This document shows, one piece after another, positions 27,840-42,053 of a stretch of 64,000 nt of DNA (its first letter is position 1; each line of letters starts with the position of its first letter). The position numbers were made by a program, and so were the translations under genes. Source of the DNA: Desulfobacterales bacterium (GTDB lineage Bacteria; Desulfobacterota; UBA8473); contig JACQWO010000025.1 in NCBI GenBank assembly GCA_016209225.1, positions 14,548 to 78,547 on the forward strand, given 5' to 3'. Under the pieces are notes generated by a model, which was given only the letters and a program-made list of their open reading frames with translations, searched no databases and was not told the DNA's origin.

Positions 27840-29285
27840 TCAAAACTTTGTGAAAGCTCCTAATATGCTTATCTCTTTCTGTACTCCGTATTTCTCCATC
27901 CTCCTACGGAGACTGTTCCTGTTTATACCCAAAAGCTTTGCTGCCTTCACCTGATTGCCTTTTGTTCTCATAAGCGCCTTTATTACAAGCATTTTCTCCA
28001 GAAATGAGAACACATCCTTATCCCCGGTTAGCGATAAGGGGATTTCTTCAAGAAGTCTATCTAAGATTCCATTCAACCCTGAAACCAGCCCCCCTTCTTT
28101 TTCCAGGGTATGAGCCCTATTTGTTTCCTCCTCAAAAGAGAGGTCTTCCTGGACAATGACTTCCGACTTACATCTAATAATAGCCTTCTTGACAACATTC
28201 TCAAGCTCTCTGACATTGCCGGGCCAATGATAACCCATCAATACCTTGATCGCCGATGGAGCAATATCTTTTATTTCTTTATTCAACTCCGGGCTTGACT
28301 TTTTTATGAAATACCTCACTAAATCCGGTATGTCGCCCTTCCTTTCCCTTAAGGGGGGGAGGTAAATAGAGACTACGTTCAAACGGTAATAGAGGTCTTC
28401 CCTGAACCTTCCCTCAGCGACTTCCTTTCTCAGATCCTTATTGGTGGCGGCTATTACCCTGATGTCAACCTTTATTGTTTCATTTCCTCCCAATCTTTCA
28501 AACTCCATCTCCTGTAATACACGAAGCATCTTGGCTTGAAGAAGAAGGGACATGTCCCCTATTTCATCCAAAAGTATGGTGCCCCCACTTAACTGTTCAA
28601 GCTTCCCGATCTTTCTTAGCCGGGCGTCGGTAAATGCCCCTTTTTCATAACCAAAAAGCTCCGACTCCAGTAGATTGTCGGGTATGGCAGCACAGTTTAT
28701 TGCCATGAAGGGTTTGTCCCTTCTTGTGCTGTGTTTATATATAGCCCTGGCAACCAGCTCTTTTCCAGTGCCACTTTCTCCAGTTAAAAGAACCGTTATA
28801 TCTTTCCCGGCCACCTGCCCTATGTACTTATATACCTTCTGCATTTCAGGCGAGTTTCCAACCATGATGTCCCCGTTTAGTTCCCCCTCTTGGGAAGGGG
28901 ACAGGGCAACCTTTCTCTTCATCATCTCTGTTACGGATAAGGCGCTGGATATGGTTGCCTTCATCCAATCGATATCAAAGGGTTTCAGGGTGTAGTCGTA
29001 TGCTCCTAACCTCATGGCCTCCACCGCGGTTTCCATAGTTCCATACGCCGTCATAATTATAATATGGAGTTTGGGATCTATATTCTTGATTTTTCTCAGG
29101 GTGGTGATTCCATCTATCCCGGGCATCCTGATATCCATTATTACCAGGTCTGGGGTATCCCTGCTGATGATGTCTACGGCCTCTTCTCCGGACGAGGCAG
29201 AAAGGACAACATAACTCTTGGAGAAGACCTTTTTAAAAGAGTAATGAACATTGGGCTCATCATCAACGATCAGTATCTTTTTCAT
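27840..29285 (-). CDS. Sigma54-dependent Fis-family response regulator (NtrC-like)
   Basis: Receiver domain (DDEPNV...DLVIMDIRMPGIDG). AAA+ sigma54-interaction domain with Walker A GESGTGKE and a GAFTDA variant of GAFTGA. C-terminal Fis HTH. Confidence 0.85.
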   Translation of the reverse strand: MKKILIVDDEPNVHYSFKKVFSKSYVVLSASSGEEAVDIISRDTPDLVIMDIRMPGIDGITTLRKIKNIDPKLHIIIMTAYGTMETAVEAMRLGAYDYTLKPFDIDWMKATISSALSVTEMMKRKVALSPSQEGELNGDIMVGNSPEMQKVYKYIGQVAGKDITVLLTGESGTGKELVARAIYKHSTRRDKPFMAINCAAIPDNLLESELFGYEKGAFTDARLRKIGKLEQLSGGTILLDEIGDMSLLLQAKMLRVLQEMEFERLGGNETIKVDIRVIAATNKDLRKEVAEGRFREDLYYRLNVVSIYLPPLRERKGDIPDLVRYFIKKSSPELNKEIKDIAPSAIKVLMGYHWPGNVRELENVVKKAIIRCKSEVIVQEDLSFEEETNRAHTLEKEGGLVSGLNGILDRLLEEIPLSLTGDKDVFSFLEKMLVIKALMRTKGNQVKAAKLLGINRNSLRRRMEKYGVQKEISILGAFTKF

Positions 29286-30952
29286 TGTACTGCCTCTATG
29301 GGCAGACTTACAGTAAATGTAGTGCCAATATCCGGGGTACTCTCCACTTCGATCGTCCCTCTATGTTCTTCAACAACCCGATGGACTATGGCCAGCCCCA
29401 ACCCCAGTCCTTTGGCCTTTGTGGTTACAAAAGGCTGAAATATCCTTTCCTTTATTGACTCCGGGATGCCAGAACCGCTATCCTTTATCTTGACCTGGAT
29501 AAAACCTCCGATAGCCCCTGAGGAGACTTCCAGCTCTCCGCCATCTTCCATAGCGTCTATGGCATTAAGAAACAGGTTGAGAAATAGCTGAGCTGCCTTC
29601 TCAGGATAACAGGATATATAGGGGAGTGGTAAAAGTGTCTTTTTGAGTTTCATCCTCTGTTGAGAAAGACGGTGCTCTATGAGAAGAAGGGTGTTTTCTA
29701 AGACCTGGTTTATATCCATTTTCTGCCGCTCTGGCTTTTCTCCCCGGGCGTAGTTCAAAAACTGGGTCACTATTCTATTCATGCGATCCAGTTCATTCTC
29801 GATTATAGTCGCATCCTTTTTGTCGGGGATAGACAGGGAGTGGAAAAGCATCTTGACTATGGTAAGGGGGTTTCTAATCTCGTGGGCCACCTCGATTGCC
29901 ATCTCTCCCAATACCCCGAGTTTCTCTGTCTCACGTATTCTCTCTTCCAGGCCTATCATCTGTTCATACAACCTGGCATTCTCAATAGCAATGGCAGATT
30001 GGTCGGCAAGGCTGGAAAGGAGCTGGATTTCTTCTGAGGTAAACCTGTGTTGTGCAGCCGTATAGGTGTTAATAACGCCTATTATTCTCTCTTTCACCAT
30101 CATGGGAACAGAAAGGAGGGAACAGAGGCCCACTTTTTTTGCCAGATCAAGATGTCTGTATCCCTTCTCTTTTCGAACATCCAGGATCATCAGAGGTTTT
30201 TTAGTCCTGACCACCTGACCTATTAAGCTCTCATCCACTTTAAGGTTGGGCTTCAATGTATAGTCCATACCCCCTCCATGGACGGCTTTAATCACTAATT
30301 CGTCTCTATCCGGATTCAGCAGCATGAGTGAAGAGACTTTGGTGTTCATCAGATGTGAGGCTTTCTCCACGATTGTCTCAAGAACCTTCTCTAAGTTCAG
30401 TGTCCCGGTAATGACCTTTCCTATGTCAAATAAGGCTGAAAGCTCTTCTACTCTCCATTTCAGGGTCTCATAGAGCTTGGCGTTCTGAATGATTTTAGCC
30501 GATTGGCCGGCCAGGGTGAAGATCAGTTCCATATCTTCCTGGGTGAAGGCGGATGTCCTTGTGCTGTCCACATTCACCACCCCGATAACCTGGTCTTCCA
30601 ATATCAGGGGAACTGCCAGCTCTGATTTTACGTCTTTATCTATCTTTACGTATCTTTCATCTTTTGTCACATCAGGCACCAGGACCGGTTTCCCCTCTTT
30701 TGCCACCCAGCCTGTAATGCCTTCACCTATCTTGAGTTTGGTGTCACTAACCACCCGGGGAGAGAATCCACGGGCTACCTCGATATTCAAGACCCCGGAA
30801 TCCCTGTCAATCAACATCAACGAGCCTGTTGTGGCCTTGGTAATCTTTACTGCGGCATCTATAATCAGATTCAGAACCTCTTGGGGCTCCAGGGTTGAAC
30901 TGATGACCCTCGACAGGTTGTAAAGTTCGGTCAGTCTGGAATTCTTAAGCAT
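29282..30952 (-). CDS. Cytoplasmic sensor histidine kinase with two GAF domains (NtrB-like partner)
   Basis: Two GAF regions, a HisKA H-box (AHEIRNPL), and HATPase_c G-boxes (DSGSGIP, GLGLGL). No TM segment. Overlaps the regulator gene by 4 nt. Confidence 0.85.
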   Translation of the reverse strand: MLKNSRLTELYNLSRVISSTLEPQEVLNLIIDAAVKITKATTGSLMLIDRDSGVLNIEVARGFSPRVVSDTKLKIGEGITGWVAKEGKPVLVPDVTKDERYVKIDKDVKSELAVPLILEDQVIGVVNVDSTRTSAFTQEDMELIFTLAGQSAKIIQNAKLYETLKWRVEELSALFDIGKVITGTLNLEKVLETIVEKASHLMNTKVSSLMLLNPDRDELVIKAVHGGGMDYTLKPNLKVDESLIGQVVRTKKPLMILDVRKEKGYRHLDLAKKVGLCSLLSVPMMVKERIIGVINTYTAAQHRFTSEEIQLLSSLADQSAIAIENARLYEQMIGLEERIRETEKLGVLGEMAIEVAHEIRNPLTIVKMLFHSLSIPDKKDATIIENELDRMNRIVTQFLNYARGEKPERQKMDINQVLENTLLLIEHRLSQQRMKLKKTLLPLPYISCYPEKAAQLFLNLFLNAIDAMEDGGELEVSSGAIGGFIQVKIKDSGSGIPESIKERIFQPFVTTKAKGLGLGLAIVHRVVEEHRGTIEVESTPDIGTTFTVSLPIEAVQ

Positions 30953-33605
30953 TCCACTCTTCCAGCCCGTCTTCCGCTATGGTCTCTCCCCTTTTGGGCT
31001 GTACCTTTCTGTAGACTTCGATAGGGTCTTTCCTCTCTCCGCTAACCTTTAAGAGGTCATCTTCGATTGAAATCCCAAACAACCGTTCATTCTCTTGCAG
31101 GTAAGGAAGGATCAGCTCCCAGTCTCTCCGTTCCAGAGGCACGATTTCTCCTCCATTTAACTGCTGATCGTCCACCGTACGGTGAGGATCACGAACATAA
31201 ATCGCACCGCCCGATGCCAGGGAAAAGAGGTTGGAACCCGGATACGAAACAGATTGAGGTATGACGGTTCCGTCATTGTTGAATTCCATACCGTTCAACA
31301 CTACAAAGCCGCCTCCGTTATGAGGGTCGCCGGCCATAAACGATTCGGCAAGGTAATCGAGGCAAGTCCCGTTTATGACCACCCGTGGCCGGCCCACTGC
31401 ATTGATAAGCGGCCGGCCGGCTGCGTTGCCCATAACATAGACTTCGCCTCCCTTAGCACCATACATGAAGGTCTGACCGGTGTCCCCGTAAATGACCATC
31501 TTCCCTGATTTCATAATCTGTCCAACCTGGTCTTGTGCATTACCATGGACATAGATGGAGAGCCCGTCAATCCCGGAGCCAAGATAATCTCCCGAACTGC
31601 CGTAGATATCGATCCGCACATCCCCGGAGTCGGGGCCGATACCGCATCCGTGAAAACGCTGCCCCTTCAGCCCAAATACGATAAACCGGCGCCAACCCAT
31701 ACAATAGGCATCTACAATCAGGCGGCTTTCACAGTCCTCTCCTTCCGGCGGGAAGAGAGAACCGTCAATAATCAAGGTGTCTTCCCCTTCAACCGGCCCC
31801 CTGAGAAGATCTCTGCTATCCCAATCTATCAGTCTGCATGACACTCCATTGTTTTCCCTGTTCCTGCTGCTATCCGGTGTCTCAAGAGAAGGGAAACTGC
31901 GGAATATACTATCAAGTGTACGGTCTATCATTTGAAGGATAGACCGTCGCTTCTTGTTATATGTTGGGTAACGCCTGTCTATCAGTCTGCTCAGAGCATC
32001 GAGTGCCGTCTCAAAGCAGTCATTTCCCCTTGATGCCCATGTCTTCACCTCCATCAGGGAATCAAAGAAGTCTTCGTAGCTAAAGTCCTTGATTCTGTCT
32101 TTCAGATATTCATACAGGAGATCAGGCTGCTTTTTATGGAAAAAAACGGACAGATCAGCCCCTGATTTCTCCTCCTTATCTCTTAGGGAATATCCCTTAT
32201 CGGTTATATAGGCGGATTGATTGGTCGGAATAGTAATCTCATTCCCGAACTTGTCAGCGCAGGTCAATTTGCGCTCAAGATAGTTGCCATCGCTTTCTTC
32301 TAGATTGAATACAAATGCCCCTCCATCGGTATAGCTTCCCCCGCGTGCATTCCAGTATCGATCCGCCACCGTACCAACCCTTGGATCTTCCTCTGCCAGG
32401 CTCTTCAATGTAGCATCGATAGCCTGTTTCTCAGAACATACCAGCCCTATCTGAACTTCCCCGTCATGCAGGGCAAAGACCTGGGGTCTGAGCATCGAGG
32501 TATCGGTAATACCAATGAGCTGTAAACGCTTATTCTCCGTGTCATTCCTCGCAATAATAAAAAACCAGGGGCCGTCCGGGGATCCGTGAATATGGGTCGC
32601 CTGAATAGCCCGGTAGATCTTCTGTTTTTCTATAGGCAACTGATCAAAATCCCTCTCCATGGTGGGAGCGAGCGCTTCAATAACATATTCCAGAGGATAA
32701 TCGTAGGTTCTGCTATATAAATCGAAAAGAAGAGCAGATACCTCCGTATCGGTCAAAAAGAGAGGGTAGATATTCCTCTGTCTCAAATATTCCGCAACTG
32801 AGCGGTAGTTTGCAAAATCTCCGTTGTGGACAAGTGCCTCATTAAGACCGACAAAGGGATGGGCGCCACCCGGATGCCAGACCCTTCCTTTGGTGGGATA
32901 GCGTTGATGAGCGATCCAGACATGTGCCCTGAAATCTTCGAGTTTGTAGTATTGCACCACTTCCTCAGCATAGCCGACAATCTTAAGTATAATGAAGTTC
33001 CTGCCATGGGAAACAACAAAGGCATGCTGCTTTCCAAAGGCATCATAAAATGTCTTGTTTATATTAAAGCTGTTTCTGTAAACAAACTCATCCTCGGCCT
33101 TCCTTCTGTCCAGACCCTTTAAGCCTGTTTCATTTACAAAAGCATCGAGGACATTGGACTTTACACGGACAAAATAACGCCGGATTTCCGGAGGGCGCAC
33201 TATCATACCGGGAATGTCCCTGTAATCATCTATATGAGACAAACGTTCCGAAAAATCTACCCTGAAGCATGGCTTTATAAAACGATTCTCAAGGTCACTC
33301 ATAACCCCTTCTTCCAGCACAGCGATCTGAAGGATATAATCCTCTTCCAGTACCTCCTTAGTCACCCCCAGAGCGTTGTGGTCGAACCCCATAGCCGCGA
33401 TTCCTCCTCCGCGGCCGTTCCCCCTGTTGTGCATCTGTTTTGAAGGCTCAAAGATATGCTTCCCCCTGACCGGCACGCTACAGGCAAATCCGGTAACGCC
33501 GCAGCCGCCTTCGGCTTCTATCTCATAATTTATCCTTCCGGGCAGATCCTGCACCAGCGGCTTTCTCGATTCTATAATCCTTGAAATGACTTCCTTTCTT
33601 TCCAT
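30945..33605 (-). CDS. Glutamate-synthase-like fusion: class II glutamine amidotransferase (Ntn) domain plus GXGXG (GltB C-terminal) domain, lacking the FMN/synthase domain
   Basis: An N-terminal region with Cys in EGGCGVTGF is preceded by a 34-aa extension. The C-terminal roughly 250 aa carry GXGXG-domain repeats (IVFGLKGQRFHGCGIG...VMGNAAGRP...). Confidence 0.75.
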   Translation of the reverse strand: MERKEVISRIIESRKPLVQDLPGRINYEIEAEGGCGVTGFACSVPVRGKHIFEPSKQMHNRGNGRGGGIAAMGFDHNALGVTKEVLEEDYILQIAVLEEGVMSDLENRFIKPCFRVDFSERLSHIDDYRDIPGMIVRPPEIRRYFVRVKSNVLDAFVNETGLKGLDRRKAEDEFVYRNSFNINKTFYDAFGKQHAFVVSHGRNFIILKIVGYAEEVVQYYKLEDFRAHVWIAHQRYPTKGRVWHPGGAHPFVGLNEALVHNGDFANYRSVAEYLRQRNIYPLFLTDTEVSALLFDLYSRTYDYPLEYVIEALAPTMERDFDQLPIEKQKIYRAIQATHIHGSPDGPWFFIIARNDTENKRLQLIGITDTSMLRPQVFALHDGEVQIGLVCSEKQAIDATLKSLAEEDPRVGTVADRYWNARGGSYTDGGAFVFNLEESDGNYLERKLTCADKFGNEITIPTNQSAYITDKGYSLRDKEEKSGADLSVFFHKKQPDLLYEYLKDRIKDFSYEDFFDSLMEVKTWASRGNDCFETALDALSRLIDRRYPTYNKKRRSILQMIDRTLDSIFRSFPSLETPDSSRNRENNGVSCRLIDWDSRDLLRGPVEGEDTLIIDGSLFPPEGEDCESRLIVDAYCMGWRRFIVFGLKGQRFHGCGIGPDSGDVRIDIYGSSGDYLGSGIDGLSIYVHGNAQDQVGQIMKSGKMVIYGDTGQTFMYGAKGGEVYVMGNAAGRPLINAVGRPRVVINGTCLDYLAESFMAGDPHNGGGFVVLNGMEFNNDGTVIPQSVSYPGSNLFSLASGGAIYVRDPHRTVDDQQLNGGEIVPLERRDWELILPYLQENERLFGISIEDDLLKVSGERKDPIEVYRKVQPKRGETIAEDGLEEWNA

Positions 33606-33620
33606 GACTTCAGCACTTCC

Positions 33621-35108
33621 TTACATATAGTCTAGGTGTATCAGACAATCTGTCCTTCCTACAAGCTCTTTTATGCTTTTCATACCCAGTTTCTTGAGTA
33701 TCCTGATCAGTTCTCTTAGCCAGGCCAGGTACATATTGATTATCCGCTGAGTTCCCCACTCAATATTCATCAATTCTGACAATTCAGGATCTGTTGTGGC
33801 AATTCCACGGGCACACCCTCTCCCGCTTTCGCAATTCTGACATCGCACACACTCCAATGCCACCAGATCCGCCGTGCCTATACAGACCCCATCGGCCCCC
33901 AGGGCTATAATCTTTGCTACATCATGAGGTGTCCTTATACCGCCACTGGCAATAACTGTCATCTTGTCCCTTACGCCTTCTTCCTGTAAGAACCGGTGAA
34001 CCTTGGGTACCGCATATTCAATAGGCATGGCAATATTCTTCTTGGCAATATCAGGGGCAGCGCCAGTGCCTCCATAGCTCCCGTCGAGATGTATGATATG
34101 AGCACCGGCGTAATAGCTCCCTACAGCCACCATATCAACGTCGGTGGGCGTAGATACCTTTACCGATACGAGCGCTTTTGGATTTATCGCTTTAATCCAG
34201 TCAACATGTTTCTTGTGATCCTCTACGGAATATACGCTGTGAAAGGGAAAAGGCGAAAAAAGAGGATATCCGACCACAGCCTCCCGCATACGCGCAACGC
34301 CTGGGGTCACCTTATCCCCCAGGAGATGTCCGCCAAGACCCGGTTTTGCACCTTGGGCATATTTAAATTCAACAATCTTGACCCGCTGTATGGTCTCCTC
34401 TTTTACCCCGAAAAGGCCTGTTGCAACCTGGGTGATCATATGGTCATCATAAGGCTTCAACTCATCCGGATATCCGCCCTCACCTGTACATGAAAAAGTG
34501 CCGAGTGCCGCGGCTGCCCTGGCCCTGCTCACCATAGTTGTAACGCTAACAGAGCCATAGGACATCCCTCCTCCGTAGACAGGTATCTCAATCCTTATCC
34601 TGTGAGCGTTATCATCCCTCCTGTTCAATTCAAGGCTCACATCAATATCATCATCCGTAATATCCTCCAAGCATGACCTGGTGCCCTTAAAAATCAGACG
34701 GAGTTTATCGAAGCCTCCTCCGGAGTTTCCCACCTTGTATTCTAAGCCCGCAAGAGGTCTCTCCCCAAATTCTGCCATATACCAGGTACCGGCAAGTAGT
34801 TCATTTGTCCATCTAAAATCCCCCAGTGTATCGAAAACAGGGTTCCTCCGGACAGAAAGGGCCTGCACCGGACAGGCTTTGTAACACGGTTCAGGGCACC
34901 CGGTTCCTAAACACAGGTAATTATTCTCAACAAAAACCTGCCCCCTTCTTTTCACGTGTACTCCATAAGGACATATCTCCACACATTTTCCACAGGCTAT
35001 GCAGTCACCTGTCCTGTTTACCCTGAATTTTCCAATAGGGTTTCTAAAACGAGACCGCGTCCGCACAGCTTCCGGAAATTGAAAAACATTCGGATTACTC
35101 AAGCTCAC
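33621..35108 (-). CDS. Fe-S plus FMN glutamate-synthase central-domain-like protein (archaeal-type GltB domain 2), paralog 2
   Basis: N-terminal ferredoxin-like cysteines (CIACGKCVEICP). Glu_synthase FMN-domain motifs follow (GEGGYP, ASGGIRT). Start set at a GTG with RBS GGAGGG just after the upstream stop; the track ORF would otherwise overlap by 68 nt. Confidence 0.7.
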   Translation of the reverse strand: MSLSNPNVFQFPEAVRTRSRFRNPIGKFRVNRTGDCIACGKCVEICPYGVHVKRRGQVFVENNYLCLGTGCPEPCYKACPVQALSVRRNPVFDTLGDFRWTNELLAGTWYMAEFGERPLAGLEYKVGNSGGGFDKLRLIFKGTRSCLEDITDDDIDVSLELNRRDDNAHRIRIEIPVYGGGMSYGSVSVTTMVSRARAAAALGTFSCTGEGGYPDELKPYDDHMITQVATGLFGVKEETIQRVKIVEFKYAQGAKPGLGGHLLGDKVTPGVARMREAVVGYPLFSPFPFHSVYSVEDHKKHVDWIKAINPKALVSVKVSTPTDVDMVAVGSYYAGAHIIHLDGSYGGTGAAPDIAKKNIAMPIEYAVPKVHRFLQEEGVRDKMTVIASGGIRTPHDVAKIIALGADGVCIGTADLVALECVRCQNCESGRGCARGIATTDPELSELMNIEWGTQRIINMYLAWLRELIRILKKLGMKSIKELVGRTDCLIHLDYM

Positions 35109-36492
35109 ATCCCTCCTCGACCTGTCCCATAGATTCAAAGGCGGCTCTATCCATATCCTCAAAAAACATGGCGCGTCCTACCTCTCCCCTCAATCGGCGG
35201 GCATCCCTGATACCCATTGCTCCCATCACTTCGATTAGTTGATTGTGCCATGCCCCGATCAGGTTTACGACACGGGAGGCAACCCAGCCAGGTGAGGCTG
35301 TATCTATCTCTACAGGACACGAGAGCCCTTTGGTGCATCTGCGACACATACGGCATTCCAGGGCTATGAGAATAGGGAAGTCTACAAAGACAGTGTCTGC
35401 CCCGCATATTATTGCCTTAGCCACATGCTCTGCCATGGCCAGTCCACCGCTGGCAAGGAGAGTAACCCCATCCCGGATGTTCTCTTCAACAAGTTTCATA
35501 TGGACCAATCTAATCCCATCTTTAAGATTACGGGTGTTATCATCCATAAACCGAGACATCGAGCTTCCTTCCAGATGGATAATGGATATACCGCCTCTTG
35601 CCAGAGAAAGCGCCTTCTCCTCCATCCCTTCAGCCATAGGTATCCTTACCGACACAAAGAGGTTCGGGATGTATCCTTTGATATCCTCAACAACTCCCTG
35701 CCATTCTTCTGTCCAGGGAATCTCTATAATTTTTGCATTCTTCGGGATATTGCCAATTGAAGTTCCTCTGGGCAAAACCAGCGGCATCAAGCAGCCGCCC
35801 ATGTCCTCCAATGCTGAATCGATCTTCTCCATGGGAAGGGCTATAAGAGTCCCAAGACGCCGCGCACCCATTGCCCATCCTTTTATTGTGTTTGGGCTGA
35901 TTGTGCCAAAGGAAGGCATCTTCAAGATTATAGGCAGAGGAATGTCAATAATGGAAGGGACCTCCCCTTCAAGTGTATCGCTGCCATTGAACATCAAATG
36001 TTCCGGAGTTTTACCCATGTCCACTGCAGTGCTTATATATTCACGACCGTGGATACCGTCCCTCGTCGGACGGACTATCTCTGACATATCCGTCCACATG
36101 GAATCAAACCCGGGGCCGCTGAAAGGACCGGGATATCCGGCGCCTGAAACCGGTATCTTTCCCGTTTGAGACTGGTTCCACAACCTCACAATAATCGGCG
36201 GTGACCAATGAGAATCCCCCATGGCATTAAACTCGGGATTCAAGGATTTATGTATCAGCTCCTTAGGGCAATTCTGAACGCACCTGTAACAGTTCATACA
36301 GAGGTTGTCAATGGATTCGATCATGTGACGGGAATCAATGCCCCTTTTATCATAGACGTTGTAAACACACCTCTTCTTCACGCAGACGGCGCACTTCAAA
36401 CAACCCTCTTCCCATGCAATAATCCCCGATTTGCTTACAGGCTGGAAGCGATTAGTCACGGTTTTTGTGTGTATCATGTATTTGGACGGCAT
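35095..36492 (-). CDS. Fe-S plus FMN glutamate-synthase central-domain-like protein, paralog 1
   Basis: CAVCVKKRC, CMNCYRCVQNCP, then LASGGLAMAEHVAKAIICGADTV, an FMN-domain signature. Confidence 0.75.
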   Translation of the reverse strand: MPSKYMIHTKTVTNRFQPVSKSGIIAWEEGCLKCAVCVKKRCVYNVYDKRGIDSRHMIESIDNLCMNCYRCVQNCPKELIHKSLNPEFNAMGDSHWSPPIIVRLWNQSQTGKIPVSGAGYPGPFSGPGFDSMWTDMSEIVRPTRDGIHGREYISTAVDMGKTPEHLMFNGSDTLEGEVPSIIDIPLPIILKMPSFGTISPNTIKGWAMGARRLGTLIALPMEKIDSALEDMGGCLMPLVLPRGTSIGNIPKNAKIIEIPWTEEWQGVVEDIKGYIPNLFVSVRIPMAEGMEEKALSLARGGISIIHLEGSSMSRFMDDNTRNLKDGIRLVHMKLVEENIRDGVTLLASGGLAMAEHVAKAIICGADTVFVDFPILIALECRMCRRCTKGLSCPVEIDTASPGWVASRVVNLIGAWHNQLIEVMGAMGIRDARRLRGEVGRAMFFEDMDRAAFESMGQVEEGCELE

Positions 36493-36514
36493 ACGTTTAC
36501 CCCTTGTAACTACG

Positions 36515-36592
36515 CAGGTGTTTAGGCTGAAGGCTGAAGGCTGAAGTGTCCTAACAGTCTTCCACCTTCAGTCTATCCACCTGAGGTGTTAC
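36515..36592. repeat. Heptad-repeat element (GCTGAAG x3) with conserved terminus GGTGTTTAGGCTG
   Basis: caggtgtttaGGCTGAAGGCTGAAGGCTGAAGtgtcctaacagtcttcCACCTTCAGtc. Lies between metF and the gltB-like operon. Confidence 0.4.
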
Positions 36593-36604
36593 CCCCCCTT
36601 ATTT

Positions 36605-37531
36605 CTAATCGAAGACAGGTCTCGGCAGAAGCCCGGCCCTCTCCACGATTTCACCAACCACCTCTTCCCACTCGATGGCCATGATATGAACCCCTTTTAT
36701 ACCAGGTACCTCTCTCAACCTCCGGATTGTCTCTACACAAATATTAATACCTTCCTCCCGTTGTTTGTACTTAGGTACCCCCTCCATCCTCTTTATAATT
36801 TCATCCGGTATATCCATCCCTGACACCTTGTTCTTCATGTATTTCGCCATGCCGGGCGACTTTAGAGGTGTGACCCCACCAAGGATGTAGGCCTTGTCGG
36901 TAAGCCCCCTGTCTCCGGCCATTCCCATCCACCTTTCGAACCTATCAAGGTTGTAGATACACTGGGTTTGGATAAAATCAGCGCCTGCCCTTATCTTCTT
37001 GGCAAGGCGTATCACTCTGAAATCGAACGGATCGGCAAAGGGATTAGCAGCTGCCCCGATAAAAAGATCCGGGGGCTGACTCAGGTCATCGCCTCCGAGA
37101 ATCTTCCCCTCATCCCGCATCGTTCTCACCACCTGAACAAATTGTATGGAGTCCAGGTCAAAGACGCCCATCGCCTGGGGCTGATTTCCAAAGATGTGAT
37201 GATCACCTGAGAGACATAAAACATTCCTTATGCCAAGTGCAGATGCACCCAGAATGTCAGACTGCAAGGCGATTCTATTACGATCCCGCACCACCATCTG
37301 GAGCACAGGGTCAAGCCCCGCTGTTTTCAACAGGCTGCAAGCCGCAATACTCGACATCCTGACTATGGCAGTCTGATTGTCTGTAACATTAACGGCATCC
37401 ACATTGTTTCGCAACATTTCAGCTTTCTTTAGCACAACATCGGAGTTTGCCCCTCTGGGGGGACCACACTCTGCTGTAACTGCAAAACCGCCTCCCTCAA
37501 GCACTCTTTTTAACTTGCTGCTATTGTTCAC
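36605..37531 (-). CDS. metF: Methylenetetrahydrofolate reductase
   Basis: 308 aa. FAVTAECGPPRG and LCLSGDH are MTHFR motifs. Overlaps metV by 4 nt. Confidence 0.8.
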   Translation of the reverse strand: MNNSSKLKRVLEGGGFAVTAECGPPRGANSDVVLKKAEMLRNNVDAVNVTDNQTAIVRMSSIAACSLLKTAGLDPVLQMVVRDRNRIALQSDILGASALGIRNVLCLSGDHHIFGNQPQAMGVFDLDSIQFVQVVRTMRDEGKILGGDDLSQPPDLFIGAAANPFADPFDFRVIRLAKKIRAGADFIQTQCIYNLDRFERWMGMAGDRGLTDKAYILGGVTPLKSPGMAKYMKNKVSGMDIPDEIIKRMEGVPKYKQREEGINICVETIRRLREVPGIKGVHIMAIEWEEVVGEIVERAGLLPRPVFD

Positions 37532-38196
37532 TTTTGTTGGTCCTCCCTGACTATCTTTCTCGGTCCCCCGCCCTGCTTTCTCGACCAGTCCTTAGGCGGG
37601 TAGATATTTTCAAGCCTGTCAAGTGCCCCGAACTTTGTTAAACGATCAACAATCAGATGCCAGGCGCACTTGACATCAGGATTGATCTCACACCTGCCGT
37701 CCATCGAACCCCCACACGGTCCGTTTAAAAGCTGTTTAGAACATCGAGCCACAGGGCAAATGCCCCCGAAGTGGTGAAGCATGCAGTCACCACATCCCAG
37801 ACAGCTCTCTACCCAATAGCCTTGATCCCTTGTCTCACCTAGAAACTCGGTGTTTATTGCAGGTATTATAGGCACTTCCGTAAACATCTCGGCAACAGCC
37901 TGAACTCCTGCCCCGCATCCCAGAGAAAGTACTGCATCATATTTCTCGATTATGTCATCGAGAAGGATGACAAAGTCCCTCACACATTGGCGGTCAAGGG
38001 TTTTTTCTTCAATAAGCACATCTTCTCCCTTCATCTTGGCTGCCATACGTAAAGTAGACGCAAGCATTGCCGTCTCTTTTTCCCCTCCGGCCGCACATTC
38101 GGCTACACAAGAGGCACAGCCAAGGACGAGGATTCGTTTGTAAGGGGCGATCATCTCCCTGATCTCGTCTATGGGCTTTTGTTCTCCGGTAATCAT
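37528..38196 (-). CDS. metV: MTHFR-associated Fe-S/zinc subunit MetV (MTHFR_C domain)
   Basis: 222 aa. CASCVAECAAGG ... CLGCGDCMLHHFGGICPVARCSKQLLNGPCGG is the typical MetV cysteine pattern. Confidence 0.7.
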   Translation of the reverse strand: MITGEQKPIDEIREMIAPYKRILVLGCASCVAECAAGGEKETAMLASTLRMAAKMKGEDVLIEEKTLDRQCVRDFVILLDDIIEKYDAVLSLGCGAGVQAVAEMFTEVPIIPAINTEFLGETRDQGYWVESCLGCGDCMLHHFGGICPVARCSKQLLNGPCGGSMDGRCEINPDVKCAWHLIVDRLTKFGALDRLENIYPPKDWSRKQGGGPRKIVREDQQK

Positions 38197-38422
38197 AGGT
38201 TGTCTCCTCTCTCCAATTCAGATACTGAACTCCAGACGTCAGACACCAGACTTTTCTGTAACTGTTCACGGTTTACGGTAATTACAACAGCAGGCTTAAG
38301 CCCGCTGTTATATAAAGCTTGGAGCATTTTTGCCAACTGTTAACTGCAAATCGTAAACTGTAAACAGATACCCCAAGTCTAATGTCTTAGGTCTATAGTC
38401 TTACTGTCTGAATCACGGTTAC

Positions 38423-38836
38423 TTAATTGTGTACAGGGGATGGAGGTAATTTCAAAGTTCTTTCCATTGCGGCCCTGGCATGATCGGCTAATGATATTGG
38501 GTTCTCTTTTGAACCGATTATCATACCTATCCGTTCTACCTCCAGCCCGATGCTTGCAATGATTGCCCTGGTCTTCTCCACCCGCTTTTTTGCCCTTTTA
38601 TTTCCTTCAGAATATCTACATACCCCTTCAGGGCATGTAATTATAAAGACAACGTCAGCAAATTCCTCCAGCGCCAGCAGCAGATGAATAGGTTCCAGCC
38701 TTCCACTGCAAGGAACAGTAAAAAGCCTTATGCCTCTCCCATACTTCTCCTCCAAATCCTGTCTTTCCCTTTCGCCACTTGCGGGAACATTCTGACAATA
38801 ATAAAGAGCAAGTGTCCGTTTCTGTTCGCTGGTCAT
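38423..38836 (-). CDS. MvhD/FlpD-like hydrogenase iron-sulfur subunit family protein
   Basis: 137 aa. LFTVPCSGRLEP...FIITCPEGVCRY is the MvhD-family cysteine pattern. Confidence 0.65.
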   Translation of the reverse strand: MTSEQKRTLALYYCQNVPASGERERQDLEEKYGRGIRLFTVPCSGRLEPIHLLLALEEFADVVFIITCPEGVCRYSEGNKRAKKRVEKTRAIIASIGLEVERIGMIIGSKENPISLADHARAAMERTLKLPPSPVHN

Positions 38837-38849
38837 TTGTAATAAACCC

Positions 38850-39010
38850 CTTTCAGTGACTGCTTAGGTTGTTTAGACTGTAGGCTGTTAGTCTACAGTC
38901 TACAGGCTACAGGCTAACAGTCTACAGGCTACAGGCTATCCGTTCAGGTCGCACATGATTTCCTCCCACAGGCTAACTGCCTACAGCCTAAACACCCGAG
39001 TAGTTACCAT
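38850..39010. repeat. Heptad-repeat element (CTACAGG family) flanked by inverted termini (GGTTGTTTAGACTGTAGGCTGTTAG and CTAACTGCCTACAGCCTAAACACC)
   Basis: ctacaggctacaggctaacagtctacaggctacaggcta between roughly 24-bp inverted arms. The terminus resembles that of element 36515-36592. Confidence 0.45.
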
Positions 39011-39166
39011 CCTGAACCCAAAAAAAAAGGTGCCCTCTTTGATCAGACACCTTTGTCCCTTTTTAGTATTACAGTACCCCATCGTACTGTACTAACTTTT
39101 CACTGCGCTAAAGTTCCCATAGTATTTGGGCAATAGCCTTTGTCATCTTTTACGAGTTTTTTGACA

Positions 39167-39361
39167 TTAGACTTTATAATAAAGTAATTCTAATATCCTG
39201 GCAGTCTCAAGTTGATTGCCTTTGTTTTTCTCCATTACTTTTTCTGCCAGAGGCCTTCCCAAAACTTCTTGAATAAAGGTATACAAGTCCTTGTCTGTCC
39301 TGCTCAAAAAAAAGTCTTCGACTATTTTTACCGCCTGTTCTTGAATATTCAAGCTTTCCAA
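39167..39361 (-). pseudogene. Third, degenerate copy of the sigma54-activator C-terminal (Fis-HTH) segment, 64 aa
   Basis: DKDLYTFIQEVL...KNKGNQLETARILEL aligns with DKDVFSFLEKML...RTKGNQVKAAKLLGI of gene 27840-29285. It lacks the end of the HTH. Confidence 0.4.
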
Positions 39362-39399
39362 AATTCTACAACCTTCCGTTATTCCCTACCCCCCTAAAA

Positions 39400-39760
39400 C
39401 AAATTTAAGGAACTTTCCACAAGAAGGGTGGAATTAGCGTTTAGGGTTAAATTAATATGAAATATGTTAAATATTGCTTAACTTAATCCTTGTTTAGAAA
39501 AATAAATAAATCGCTTATGCTTTAGCAATGATTAATATTTTAATCATGCTTAAATTAAATGTCAAGATAAAAATTGCGCCCAATAAAAATATTTACATAC
39601 TAATTAAGCACTGCTTAATTAGTTGAATTTGCAAAACTTATGAATTAAATTATTAAAAACAAATTGTTTTGACTTTTCCCTGTATTTAGTTACACTGAAT
39701 AAATTAATAAAAGAACCTTAGAAAAGTATCCCTTTTTAGCTTAAGCATCCATTTTTTGAG
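39400..39760. promoter_or_regulatory. AT-rich region with TTAAGCA-type palindromes upstream of the KaiC-like/HTH gene
   Basis: Perfect palindrome TTAAGCAcTGCTTAA. Related sites: ATTGCTTAA, ATGCTTTAGCAAT, ATGCTTAAATTAAAT, AGCTTAAGCAT. Confidence 0.3.
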
Positions 39761-39769
39761 GTGGGTCTT

Positions 39770-40846
39770 ATGAAAGAATTTTATAGCAGCGGAATTCCGT
39801 ATTTAGATGATCTCATGGGAGGGGTTTTACTTGGGGATAATGTAGTTTGGGTATTGGGGCCAGGGACGTATTATGATTATTTTTTGGAATGTTTTTTGAC
39901 TGTAAGGGAGGATAACCCTTTCAAGAATATCTATGTGAGCTTTGATTTCCCTCCTCAAAAGATATACACACGTTATAAGGAGTTTTTCGATAAAGAGGAT
40001 TTTATACTTGTGGATGCCTTTACATTCGGAAAGGCAAAGGGCGATGAGTTCTTTCAATCCTTTTACAAAAGTGAAACTACCGGATCCGAGTCGTTTCGTG
40101 TACACTGCATAAAAGACCTGTCTGACCCTATCGAATTTATAAAAGTCATTCGTGAATTGCAAAATGAATTTAAAGAGGGTAGCTTGTGTAAATATGCCTT
40201 TGATAGCCTGACGGGAATGCAAGAACTATGGGGTGAAAAAGAGACCCTTCATTTCTTTACATATACCTGTCCCAAACTTTTTGAGCTAAAGGCATTGGCT
40301 TACTGGCCCCTGGCTAAGGATGCTCATTCTAAAGCGTTCTTGGCAAATATAAGCCATATAACCCAATTGGTAATTCATTTAGATTCTCAGGGAGACAGTA
40401 CCTGTACGGCAGGATTTTTAAAGATGGATGGCAGGCCTTCTCAGTTGTTGAACGGCGTTCATTACTATAATTTTCAAGACAATGAGATAAATTTTCTAGA
40501 ACCCTCTGAACAGGCAGATGAACGAAGATTTAAAACATATGGATTGTCTTATCAAGGGAGAGATTCGGAAAGAATTCCGAGTTTTTTACGCAATAAAGAC
40601 CGGATAAATATAGGAGGCCGTATCAAGGATTTTCGACTGAAAAAAAACATTTCACAGGTAGAATTAGCCAGAATATTGGATATTACACCAAGTGCGTTAT
40701 CTCAAATAGAGAGCAATCAGAGCCTTCCATCACTTAAACTCTTCGTGGATATTGCCCGATGTCTTGAAAAATCCCTGGATTCTTTCTTTATCGATTCTCA
40801 TGCTCCCCTTAAAAATCAAAGGCAAAACAGAAGAGAACGAGGGTAG
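39770..40846 (+). CDS. KaiC/RecA-superfamily-like domain with degenerate Walker A, fused to a C-terminal XRE-type HTH
   Basis: GIPYLDDLMGGVLLGDNVVWVLGPGTYYDYF, with no GKT/S. The C-terminus LKKNISQVELARILDITPSALSQIESNQSLPSLKLFVDIARCL is the HTH_XRE pattern. RBS GAGGTGGG before the ATG at 39770. Confidence 0.55.
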   Translation: MKEFYSSGIPYLDDLMGGVLLGDNVVWVLGPGTYYDYFLECFLTVREDNPFKNIYVSFDFPPQKIYTRYKEFFDKEDFILVDAFTFGKAKGDEFFQSFYKSETTGSESFRVHCIKDLSDPIEFIKVIRELQNEFKEGSLCKYAFDSLTGMQELWGEKETLHFFTYTCPKLFELKALAYWPLAKDAHSKAFLANISHITQLVIHLDSQGDSTCTAGFLKMDGRPSQLLNGVHYYNFQDNEINFLEPSEQADERRFKTYGLSYQGRDSERIPSFLRNKDRINIGGRIKDFRLKKNISQVELARILDITPSALSQIESNQSLPSLKLFVDIARCLEKSLDSFFIDSHAPLKNQRQNRRERG

Positions 40847-40859
40847 GTTCTTAGTGTTC

Positions 40860-42053
40860 TCAGTACATCTCGTATTTAACCAGCCTGCCGTCAAGCCCGC
40901 CGGCTTTGATCGGTTTTTTCCATGATGCTTTAAGCCCGATTTTTTTGATATACTTCCGTTCTCCGAAATAAACAAAAGCGGCCGAGCCTTTGCATTTCTG
41001 TTTCAGAAAATCGCCGAGATTTTTATAAAACATTTCAAGGTTCTCATTTCCCCCCATCCGAATGCCATAAGACGGATTGGTCACAATTACATGCTCTTCA
41101 AGGGCAGGCAGCTTTCTGAAGTCCGCCCTTTCAACGCTTACGTTATTTCCGAAATGGAGCCCCATCAGGTTTGTCCTCGACGCCCTAACAGCCTCCGCGG
41201 ACACATCACTACCTGCAATCAGCCCTTTCGGGAGTTCCCGGATGTGTCCGTCGGCCTCTTTTTTTACCTGCTTCCAGACAGCGCCATCAAAGTCGGGCAG
41301 AAATTCAAAACCGAATTGATTCCTGAAAACACCCGCAGGAATATTGCTATACCGCATGAGCGCTTCACACAAAAGGGTTCCCGAACCGCACAAAGGATCA
41401 TATAAAGGAACAGAACCGTCCCATTCGCTGAATCGAATAATCGCGGCGGCGACGGTTTCCTGCATCGGTGCCGAAACGGTCTCTTCTCTGTATCCTCTCC
41501 GGTGAAGCGCGCCGCCTGAGGTATCGAGGCTTATCACTGCCTCATTGTTCCTGATATGAAGGTTCAGCAGGATATCCGGATTCCTTACCGACACATTTGG
41601 ACGCCGACCGGTTTTTTCTTTAAAATAGTCTGCAACCGCATCTTTAAGTCGGAGGGCAGCGTACTTTGAATGCGAAATCGAACTGTTGGAAACATTCCCC
41701 GATACGGCAAAGGTATTGCCTTTTGCAAAAAAATCTTCCCAGGAGATTTGTTTGGCCTTCTGATACAGAGTATCGGGATCATGACAAGGGTATGATATTA
41801 ACGGCGCCAGGCACCGTGAAAGAAGCCTGGTCAAATAATTAATTCGATACAGGGTTGATTTGTCCGCCCTGAAATGAATTCCGCTGAATTCCGGCCTTAC
41901 ATCTTCAGCGCCGAGTTCAGCAAGTTCCTCCGCACCGGCTTCTTTTAAACCGTCGGCTATCTGGGCAAAATAACGGCAATCCTTCTGATACTGATATACC
42001 GCCGTTTGCCGCTTTTCTCTTCTAAGGCATTTGACCCTATCGGCTGATGCCAT
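40860..42053 (-). CDS. THUMP-domain class I SAM methyltransferase (RlmL/YpsC-like)
   Basis: 397 aa. The N-terminus is THUMP-like. DPLCGSGTLL (motif I) and VTNPSYGIRM (an NPPY-type motif) are typical of RlmL-family RNA methyltransferases. Confidence 0.7.
   Translation of the reverse strand: MASADRVKCLRREKRQTAVYQYQKDCRYFAQIADGLKEAGAEELAELGAEDVRPEFSGIHFRADKSTLYRINYLTRLLSRCLAPLISYPCHDPDTLYQKAKQISWEDFFAKGNTFAVSGNVSNSSISHSKYAALRLKDAVADYFKEKTGRRPNVSVRNPDILLNLHIRNNEAVISLDTSGGALHRRGYREETVSAPMQETVAAAIIRFSEWDGSVPLYDPLCGSGTLLCEALMRYSNIPAGVFRNQFGFEFLPDFDGAVWKQVKKEADGHIRELPKGLIAGSDVSAEAVRASRTNLMGLHFGNNVSVERADFRKLPALEEHVIVTNPSYGIRMGGNENLEMFYKNLGDFLKQKCKGSAAFVYFGERKYIKKIGLKASWKKPIKAGGLDGRLVKYEMY

Follow-up and report, generated by a model that had tools for sequence, protein, structure and literature searches.

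We analyzed a window of 64,000 nucleotides from a Desulfobacterales bacterium (NCBI GenBank assembly GCA_016209225.1, contig JACQWO010000025.1, positions 14,548 to 78,547 of the forward strand), and all coordinates are those of the window unless a locus is named. At 39167-40846 it contains a small gene, an AT-rich tract and a gene for a 358-residue regulator, in which a KaiC-like domain that has lost its ATPase motifs is joined to an XRE-type helix-turn-helix (HTH) domain. The tract holds several copies of a short palindromic motif and two back-to-back promoters, one reading into the regulator gene and the other toward genes of the glutamate synthase (GOGAT) type. We consider it probable that the protein is a repressor of these glutamate-synthase-type genes, with the inactivated KaiC (iKaiC) domain as its sensing or oligomerizing input. 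The regulator is composed as follows, the structural assignments being drawn in part from an AlphaFold2 (AF2) model and its predicted local distance difference test (pLDDT) scores.

39770-40846, + strand: regulator gene, 358 aa, with iKaiC domain, disordered linker and XRE HTH (open reading frame, conserved start, homologues)
39770-40519, + strand: KaiC/RecA-fold domain (iKaiC), residues 1-250 (AF2, Foldseek, profile against the PDB, invariant columns)
39848-39883, + strand: P-loop remnant WVLGPGTYYDYF, residues 27-38 (HMMER alignment to KaiC and PH0284)
40529-40603, + strand: disordered linker, residues 254-278 (pLDDT below 50; alignment)
40610-40789, + strand: XRE/Cro-C1 HTH of five helices, residues 281-340 (Pfam HTH_3, XRE matches in the PDB, AF2)

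The open reading frame (ORF) can be read from a GTG at 39761 or an ATG at 39770 to 40846 on the plus strand. The ATG is the real start, because homologues begin there and a GAGGTG ribosome-binding site (39758-39763) precedes it; it is kept in 18 orthologues, whose N-termini follow the pattern M-K/G-E/K-x-Y/I-S-S/C-G-I-P-Y-L-D (MKEFYSSG-type). The peptides quoted in the original prediction for this locus (GIPYLDDLMGG, VLGPGTYYDYF and LKKNISQVELARILDITPSALSQIESNQ) are all present in the ORF. The gene is monocistronic and convergent with a THUMP methyltransferase gene (40860-42053, minus strand), and an opposite-strand ORF lying wholly within it (39827-40222) is presumed to be spurious. An identical regulator protein with the same neighbors is found in four metagenome contigs. 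The GC content of the gene is about 37-41%, against about 47-52% in most neighboring genes, which could reflect an AT-rich lineage of the gene or its codon usage. The C-terminal HTH, already named as XRE-type in the original prediction, is borne out by a match of residues 285-338 to Pfam HTH_3 (PF01381; E 2.2e-13, 50.5 bits against a cut-off of 23), a domain present in 111 of 111 relatives, and its modeled helices span residues 281-291, 296-302, 307-314, 322-331 and 336-340 with block-mean pLDDT of 86-94. The protein ends 18 residues past the HTH and is without the Cupin_2 domain carried C-terminal to the HTH by 72 of the 111 relatives. The linker at 254-278 is specific to the cupin-less subfamily, being an insertion relative to the cupin-type relatives in an alignment of 26 sequences (A1).

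Residues 1-250 are predicted to adopt a KaiC/RecA fold. Single-sequence matches of this domain are weak (PF06745 KaiC, E 0.037 in Pfam; thermo_KaiC_1, E 0.012 in NCBIfam; PH0284, E 0.0033 in a PDB search with the window protein), and the family as a whole gives firmer values: Pfam KaiC is matched at E <= 0.01 by 39 of 111 relatives, the best at 2.2e-8, a sigma54-type relative (P0129) reaches 31.3 bits, and the N-domain family profile searched against the PDB returns KaiC at E 1.7e-8 and PH0284 at E 2.4e-7. The AF2 model, built on 111 homologues, has a mean pLDDT of 83.5 over its full length and shows residues 1-250 as an alternating beta/alpha domain, with block means mostly of 85-97, one ten-residue block at 63 and a drop from about residue 220. 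The top Foldseek matches in the PDB are exclusively chains of the KaiC superfamily, led by KaiC (7s65_B, E 2.4e-12) and PH0284 (2dr3, E 2.7e-12, template modeling (TM) score 0.74 on the target, root-mean-square deviation 3.7 A) and followed by Sso2452 (2w0m, TM 0.75), PH0186 (2zts) and FlaH (4yds). The RecA/KaiC-like character first proposed for the N-terminal region thus holds in model, structure search and profile alike; the structure prediction suggested as a check gave a RecA-like fold, and no other sensor domain was matched instead. Conserved motifs of the domain are GIxYLDxxxGGxxxGDNVVW, DAFTxGKG, FDSLTGMxELW (Walker-B-like), CPKL, AYW, AH(S/T) and ITQ; residues D13, N24, D82, K88 and H186 are invariant down to 33% identity and T85, K169 and R222 nearly so.

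On the evidence of its motifs the domain is a predicted pseudo-ATPase, the loss being family-wide. HMMER alignment places the GPGTYYD of the window protein on the GTSGTGKT of KaiC, so that GKT becomes YYD, and the family pattern G-T-(Y/A/P)-(Y/V)-(D/E)-x-F falls on the G-T-G-K-T-V-F of KaiC with no change of length. The P-loop lysine is thereby gone and the magnesium-ligating serine or threonine is replaced by a conserved acidic residue. A Walker A motif (G....GK[ST]) occurs in none of the 111 relatives, which extends to the whole family the missing P-loop noted at the outset in this one protein, and in none of the 145 representatives newly listed by an N-domain profile search. The catalytic Glu-Glu after beta2 (tFEESP in KaiC) is likewise replaced, by sFDFpP here and NFNYSP in relatives. 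The Walker-B-like strand is kept (KYAFD145-SLTG), with F144, S146, L147 and T148 nearly invariant and D145 kept in most members, with a few Glu or Gly exceptions. The loop vDAFTxGKG, in which D82, F84, G87 and K88 are invariant, is common to the active PH0284 (mvDAFTaGiGk); this places the family in the line of UPF0273-type (PH0284) descent and, because an active enzyme has the same loop, DAFTxGKG is no substitute P-loop.

A word-indexed search returned 323 relatives of the regulator in two groups. The close group (55-95% identity, about 350 aa) comes from Thermodesulfobacteriota and from metagenome-assembled genomes (MAGs) of Syntrophales and has the architecture of the window protein, and the larger group (33-43% identity, about 420-440 aa) has the extra C-terminal Cupin_2 in a PuuR-like HTH plus cupin module. 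At least 563 species genomes contain a relative when one genome per species is scanned, distributed over Thermodesulfobacteriota, Nitrospirota (including Thermodesulfovibrionales), Spirochaetota (including Leptospirales) and a few others. The fusion of a KaiC-like domain to an HTH, described in the original prediction as unusual in bacteria, is therefore real and anything but a one-off. Database names for these proteins are merely "helix-turn-helix transcriptional regulator", to which one JGI entry adds "KaiC/GvpD/RAD55 family RecA-like ATPase".

The tract between the regulator gene and the small gene (39362-39769) has 27% GC, falling to 24% in the 300 bases from 39400 to 39699, in keeping with the AT-rich upstream region of the original prediction. 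The sites and promoters within it are these, the sites being given without strand.

39467-39481: site S1, TTAAATATTGCTTAA, in the leader of the minus-strand transcript; identical in the relative loci L001 and L011
39521-39535: site S2, TTTAGCAATGATTAA, covering the inferred minus-strand start at about 39530
39537-39565, - strand: sigma70-type promoter TTGACA (39565-39560)-17-TAAAAT (39542-39537), 11 of 12 matches (consensus scan)
39540-39553: site S3, TTAATCATGCTTAA, a 14-bp TTAA-N6-TTAA variant overlapping the spacer and the first -10 bases of the minus-strand promoter
39599-39623: site S4, the perfect 25-bp palindrome ACTAATTAAGCAcTGCTTAATTAGT, core TTAAGCAcTGCTTAA at 39604-39618 (palindrome scan)
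39669-39696, + strand: regulator promoter TTGACT (39669)-16-TACACT (39696) (consensus scan)
39741-39747: half-site TTAAGCA in the 5' untranslated region (UTR) of the regulator, at about +38 to +44

The palindrome at S4 consists of two 12-nt arms around a single base (ACTAATTAAGCA-c-TGCTTAATTAGT, 39599-39623), and its 15-bp site at 39604-39618 reads TTAAGCACTGCTTAA. Of 5000 dinucleotide shuffles made of the region, 10 gave an arm of at least 12 nt. Five copies of the half-site TGCTTAA lie in the 408 bp, against 0.21 expected and a count reached in none of 5000 shuffles, and these copies make up five of the ten within the whole window. The perfect palindrome and related half-sites of the original prediction are thus real, unusual and conserved, and the palindrome is corrected in size to a 25-mer. 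The predicted functional core is TTAAGYA-N-TRCTTAA, and S1, S2 and S4 are full 15-bp sites of at most two mismatches from the core. Center-to-center distances are 54 bp (S1-S2), 83 bp (S2-S4) and 137 bp (S1-S4), by arithmetic on the coordinates near whole helical turns, a spacing that would suit an oligomer contacting several sites. A role of the palindrome as an RNA hairpin was rejected because it lies upstream of both inferred transcription starts; Rfam gave no RNA family in 38700-41000.

The minus-strand promoter putatively drives the small ORF and an operon of MvhD, MetVF and glutamate-synthase-like genes, and its TTGACA box is kept at about -200 to -225 in many orthologous loci. The regulator promoter is kept as TTGAC(T/A)-16-TA(A/C)ACT in L001, L011 and L012, and a TTGAC(T/A) box stands at a similar distance in 12 of 18 orthologous upstream regions, mostly at about -70 to -120. 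S4 lies between the two divergent -35 boxes, at about -92 from the predicted start of regulator transcription and about -81 from that predicted for the operon. A protein that represses the divergent transcript and acts on its own promoter as well would be expected to have its sites arranged in this way. As another explanation, the dyads were considered as enhancer sites for the NtrC-like regulator encoded at the distal operon end; this is unlikely because the minus-strand operon is without a sigma54 promoter (TGGCAC-N5-TTGCW), the sole nearby match having two mismatches and lying on the wrong strand.

Comparison among relatives indicates that the motif is maintained. The tract can be aligned in the three closest loci, in which S4 reads TTAAGCGtTACTTAA (L011), TTAAGTAtTACTTAA (L012) and TTAAATAtTACTTAA (L001). 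In L012 it is again a perfect palindrome, reached via changes in both arms, and this two-arm change speaks for selection acting on the dyad symmetry. In the regions upstream of 14 other orthologues, where 2.6 copies of TTAA-N6-TTAA and 2.5 of TTAA-N7-TTAA are expected, 22 and 15 were observed, neither count being reached in 300 shuffles. In the cupin-type loci the motif sits between the regulator and the following Glu_synthase gene and not upstream of the regulator: the regulator-to-Glu_synthase spacers of cupin-type relatives at 35-40% identity contain eight copies of TTAA-N7-TTAA against 1.3 expected (none of 200 shuffles), and the 300 bp upstream of cupin-type regulators contain three against 1.4, which is no enrichment. 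Several of the spacer sites are nearly identical to the window core, namely TTAAGCAATACTTAA (L056 and L069), TAAAGCAATGCTTAA (L061) and TTAAGTATTGCTTTA (L041 and L049). A degenerate pattern (TTAAGYANTRCTTAA, at most two mismatches), whose degenerate positions were chosen after some of the sites had been seen, has 45 matches in 71 kb of regulator-flanking zones and eight in the other 1190 kb of the DNA retrieved; with the near relatives of the window removed it has 37 matches against 1.47 +/- 1.18 in shuffles (maximum five in 200). The tests made with the window-derived core and with TTAA-N7-TTAA are independent of that choice. An unbiased enumeration of dyads returned mainly TTAA repeats, and the spacer-resolved shuffle test was needed for an informative result. 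At the level of sequence, the dyad motif travels with the regulator gene across phyla.

The divergent genes form the putative target operon, in the following order from its promoter-proximal end.

30945-38836, - strand: putative target operon (Pfam, NCBIfam; conserved linkage with the regulator)
38423-38836, - strand: MvhD/FlpD
37528-38196, - strand: MetV
36605-37531, - strand: MetF (methylene-tetrahydrofolate reductase, with MetV)
35095-36492, - strand: Glu_synthase (flavin mononucleotide (FMN)-domain) protein, 465 aa, with a sub-threshold Fer4_10 match
33621-35162, - strand: Glu_synthase (FMN-domain) protein, 513 aa, its N-terminus matching ferredoxin-type NCBIfam models
30945-33605, - strand: class-II amidotransferase plus GXGXG protein, 886 aa
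29282-30952, - strand: GAF histidine kinase, at the distal operon end
27840-29285, - strand: NtrC-like sigma54 response regulator, at the distal operon end

Between them, the two Glu_synthase proteins and the 886-aa protein would provide the three components that make up a split glutamate synthase of the archaeal type. The GAF kinase and the NtrC-like regulator are also linked in L004/L019, L014 and L015, and may belong to the same regulatory unit as the operon. Every close homologue with enough flanking sequence has glutamate-synthase-type genes beside the regulator, and a cupin-type member (L010) lies inside the same kind of cluster. Of 83 distinct loci, tblastn showed 57 to have a Glu_synthase, GXGXG or GATase_2 gene no more than 10 kb away, in most cases less than 1 kb; within the close subfamily the figure is 16 of 19, two of the three exceptions being short of upstream sequence. 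The combination of MvhD, Glu_synthase and the GXGXG part recurs in distant phyla (L039, L010/L033, L030, L032, L083 and L086), and L039 has the full gene order of the window, MetV and MetF included. This suggests a conserved redox complex that would couple an archaeal-type split glutamate synthase to electron transfer of the MvhD/MetFV type. Just past the sigma54 regulator lies a gene for a further 886-aa protein, with an N6_N4 DNA methylase domain and a UPF0020-like region (24883-27543, minus strand).

The P-loop-less domain is found well outside the XRE regulators. An exhaustive search with a profile hidden Markov model of the N-domain gave 1065 representatives at E <= 1e-3, of which 432 stand at E <= 1e-10, and about 1000 clusters at 50% identity have a P-loop-less KaiC-like domain. 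It stands N-terminal in GAF-sigma54-activator-HTH_8 and GAF-HisKA_3-HATPase_c proteins, in GAF-ANTAR, PAS-GGDEF-EAL, PAS/GAF and PAS-DUF835 proteins, and at the head of proteins of about 865 aa with PPDK_N. The suggestion in the original prediction of a sensor or oligomerization role for the N-domain is consistent with the same domain heading so many other signaling proteins. Distant members match the profile in two stretches that skip the DAFTxGxG loop, which is missing from them altogether. A sigma54 form (P0137, L092 8001-14803) lies directly upstream of genes for Glu_synthase, glutamine synthetase (GS) and the small chain of carbamoyl-phosphate synthase, and a kinase (P0229, L097 635-6355) lies directly downstream of genes for glutamate dehydrogenase (GDH) and a Glu_synthase-like protein; the iKaiC-GAF-HisKA_3 kinase of L097 is accompanied by a NarL-type regulator. 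A metagenome scan for the short domain form found GDH, Glu_synthase or GS adjacent in 12 of about 20 distinct loci, and the PPDK_N form follows immediately after GDH in four loci (L103, L104, L107 and L108). In this small sample of contexts, many of them on short contigs, the adjacency of iKaiC-domain proteins of other architectures to glutamate-centered genes is a strong hint and not a census. Proteins of the PPDK_N type (L104 3516-6125 and L108 1215-3803, also in L110 and L111; P0213, P0231, P0240 and others) may constitute an uncharacterized, GDH-linked regulatory kinase.

On the other side of the tract, the divergent transcript begins with the small gene.

39167-39361, - strand: small gene, 64 aa, like the linker and first HTH_8 helix of sigma54 activators (BLASTP, orthologues, proportions of nonsynonymous and synonymous differences (pN/pS))

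It had been taken for a degenerate remnant of a sigma54-activator HTH. The resemblance is real, as residues 410-454 of the NtrC-like regulator of the window are matched at E 3e-6 in BLASTP, the similarity stopping at ...ARILE, before the recognition helix; against Pfam HTH_8 (PF02954) it scores 13.7 bits, below the threshold of 22. Mere decay does not fit the pN/pS values of 0.10/0.37 and 0.04/0.21 (about 0.2-0.3), which indicate purifying selection. Orthologues of 47-80 aa are found at L001 5059-5301, L012 9120-9338, L017 553-747, L018 3294-3437 and L019 9241-9384; the conserved part is the first 40 residues or so, before the HTH (QEQxVxIxEDFFL...DLYxFxxEVLxxPL), and those of L018 and L019 are without any HTH part. 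The ORF is therefore a real, conserved small gene and not just debris. Directly before it, relatives have a second small ORF of about 53 aa (MPEVxVYENGEFTD...RGVHRIIIDMEY; L001 5357-5518, L012 9448-9609, L017 857-1024 and L018 3438-3635, all on the minus strand), which the window has lost (about 39362-39400). The 330-bp spacer between the small ORF and MvhD contains a run of nine A and an inverted repeat with an 8-bp stem, TACAGTAC...GTACTGTA (38849-39015, 39070-39091), and Rfam searches of this spacer gave chance-level matches at most.

The nearest described counterpart of the N-terminal domain is archaeal. KaiC-like ATPases have been proposed as archaeal signaling hubs, and iKaiC denotes an inactivated KaiC-like ATPase domain of archaeal, chiefly haloarchaeal, signaling proteins, sharing with the present family the KaiC-superfamily fold, the disrupted ATPase motifs and the use as a module beside PAS, REC and other domains (Galperin et al. 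2018, PMC5847659, citing Makarova, Galperin and Koonin 2017, mBio e01959-17). The described iKaiC domains are archaeal, whereas this family is bacterial (Thermodesulfobacteriota, Nitrospirota and Spirochaetota), has an XRE HTH attached, followed in many members by a cupin, and keeps to the neighborhood of glutamate synthase, GDH and GS genes. For a relation in sequence to the archaeal groups, as represented by Pfam DUF7090, the window protein gives a match below the cut-off (E 0.015, 15.4 bits against 27), and P0201 one at E 6.4e-4. Fold and profile place the family in the KaiC superfamily; we file it as a putative bacterial variant of the iKaiC kind, outside the KaiC ATPases because the ATPase motifs are absent and the window protein stays below the Pfam KaiC threshold. 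PH0284/UPF0273 (TIGR03877 thermo_KaiC_1, Thermococcales, 2dr3), a single-domain protein, shares the GIPxxDxxLxGG opening and the vDAFTxGxGk loop, but it has an intact GPGTGKT P-loop and no DNA-binding domain where the window protein has GPGTYYD and a C-terminal HTH. The cyanobacterial clock protein KaiC and ArlH/FlaH have the same RecA-type core; KaiC differs as a double-domain autokinase and ATPase hexamer, ArlH keeps Walker A, and neither has a DNA-binding domain. ArlH/FlaH nonetheless sets a precedent, as a KaiC-like protein whose function depends on binding and not on hydrolysis.

As for the DNA-binding half, the HTH_3 plus Cupin_2 module C-terminal to iKaiC in the cupin-type relatives is of the PuuR type: the PuuR model matches the HTH region of the window protein at E 2.5e-5, and a PDB entry with HTH_3 and cupin (1y9q) matches the profile. 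PuuR itself is without a KaiC-like domain, and the window protein has lost the cupin. The repressors of phages 434 and P22, SinR and CylR2 have a five-helix HTH and short dyad operators with the outer 4 bp conserved; 434 operators are of the form ACAA-N6-TTGT, compared with TTAA-N6/7-TTAA in this family. Those proteins have small C-terminal dimerization domains, whereas here a 250-residue pseudo-ATPase domain precedes the HTH, and by analogy the regulator would act in the manner of a classical XRE repressor to which a large regulatory domain has been added. NtcA, GlnR/TnrA, NrpR, NtrBC and AmtR control genes of the GS/GOGAT type in response to 2-oxoglutarate or glutamine. They are functional analogues only, their sensor parts being without sequence or fold relation to iKaiC, and the operator is unlike the published consensus sites GTA-N8-TAC, TGTNA-N7-TNACA and GGAA-N6-TTCC. 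CsmR and CirA of Haloferax were considered as precedents and set aside, being separate proteins with no fusion. A literature search of incomplete coverage found no description of the bacterial family, the XRE fusion, the operator or the glutamate synthase link, and nothing relevant on a regulator combining KaiC-like, XRE, cupin and glutamate synthase features, on pseudo-ATPase KaiC or on DUF7090.

The repressor that we favor would operate as follows. Its XRE HTH would bind 15-bp dyads of the form TTAAGYA-N-TRCTTAA, presumably as a dimer within a larger oligomer. The 400-bp AT-rich region separating the back-to-back sigma70-type promoters would offer it S1, S2 and S4 as full sites, S3 as an N6 variant and a single half-site. 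With S2 and S3 placed over the core and the start of the strong minus-strand promoter, repression of the divergent operon is the most likely effect, and the protein would probably modulate its own promoter too, through S4 and the half-site in the 5' UTR. The N-terminal 250 residues would be the regulatory input, serving as an oligomerization scaffold and most likely sensing 2-oxoglutarate, glutamate or glutamine so as to change DNA binding; a glutamate-type effector is the most economical guess because all architectures keep the company of GOGAT, GS and GDH. Several points weigh against this repressor. S4, the best site, lies upstream of both promoters, where it would suit activation or looping just as well; the AT-rich sites could be those of another factor, and the degenerate pattern was refined with some of the sites already in view. 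The window protein itself scores 13.8 bits against Pfam KaiC (PF06745), under the gathering threshold of 26.6, and ligand binding by the iKaiC domain is a proposal. Finally, 26 of the 83 loci are without a glutamate synthase neighbor, mostly those of Leptospirales and other Spirochaetota. In one of them, a Leptospiraceae MAG (L008 4466-5767), a cupin-type regulator is divergent from genes for an AMP-dependent (CoA) ligase, an ACT-domain protein and a two-subunit 2-oxoacid:ferredoxin oxidoreductase (POR), and the regulator family may have other targets in Leptospirales and Spirochaetota.

Other readings assign the N-terminal domain another role. It might be a scaffold only, an effector-free iKaiC that assembles a ring or oligomer, in which several HTH pairs would occupy the arrayed sites and draw the promoter region into a loop. 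The signal would then come from elsewhere, for example from the GAF kinase with the NtrC-like regulator, or from the cupin of relatives that have one. KaiC-like proteins are hexamers, the closest structures (PH0284 and KaiC) have at least six chains per entry, and nine of the 111 members weakly match PAXNEB/Elp4, an inactive RecA-fold ring subunit; four to five sites over 280 bp at nearly whole helical turns and a separate cupin as a possible ligand sensor in most relatives would also agree. Against this, a large number of polar residues stay unchanged down to 33% identity where a scaffold usually requires fewer, the subfamily of the window has lost the cupin and yet its iKaiC is highly conserved, and the domain occupies the N-terminal input position in other architectures, so that we regard a pure scaffold as rather unlikely. 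A non-canonical nucleotide sensor, binding ATP or ADP without the Walker A lysine (for example via K88 and the Walker-B-like Asp) and reporting energy charge instead of nitrogen, seems to us more doubtful again. Most members keep the Walker-B-like YxFDSLTG, alignment A1 shows G32 as nearly invariant, T33 persists in the subfamily of the window, an invariant GK stands in the loop after beta3, and the structural matches include ArlH/FlaH (4yds), a KaiC-like protein that binds ATP but hydrolyzes little or none of it. However, neither the Lys nor the Ser/Thr of the P-loop remains, the conserved acidic residue in place of the latter would repel phosphate, and the DAFTxGxG loop, which the active PH0284 also has and which is hence no substitute P-loop, is absent from more distant members.

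It is very improbable that the gene encodes a generic XRE repressor of the phage, mobile-element or antitoxin type beside which the neighborhood and the palindromes are coincidental. The best NCBIfam matches of the HTH are to RstR, MqsA, HipB and PezA-type models, all far below their cut-offs, and the lower GC of the gene would fit such an origin; but no toxin, integrase or phage gene lies nearby, the other window genes examined are ordinary housekeeping and metabolic ones, the linkage to glutamate synthase is kept across phyla and so is the operator motif. An antitoxin or a phage repressor was rejected for want of partner genes.

Beyond the locus, it is possible, and we put it forward tentatively, that the P-loop-less KaiC-derived domain is a new bacterial sensor of glutamate-centered nitrogen status (2-oxoglutarate, glutamate or glutamine) and has been coupled to six or more kinds of output (XRE HTH, sigma54 activator, histidine kinase, ANTAR, GGDEF-EAL and PPDK_N). 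In that case the XRE form would be the local regulator that has so far been missing for the glutamate-synthase-type genes of Thermodesulfobacteriota, Nitrospirota and some Spirochaetota, with TTAAGYA-N-TRCTTAA as its operator. Control of nitrogen assimilation is well understood in proteobacteria, firmicutes, cyanobacteria and methanogens, and hardly in the uncultured anaerobes that have this family. If true, these poorly studied anaerobes would gain a regulator family (in at least 563 species genomes) together with its operator and target genes, and the KaiC/RecA ATPase core would provide an example of a pseudo-enzyme turned into an input domain with many outputs, found repeatedly beside GOGAT, GS and GDH. 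The gene content of the operon, in which MvhD-MetVF stands together with split glutamate-synthase-like subunits, gives a hint of a redox-coupled enzyme complex of an unusual kind.

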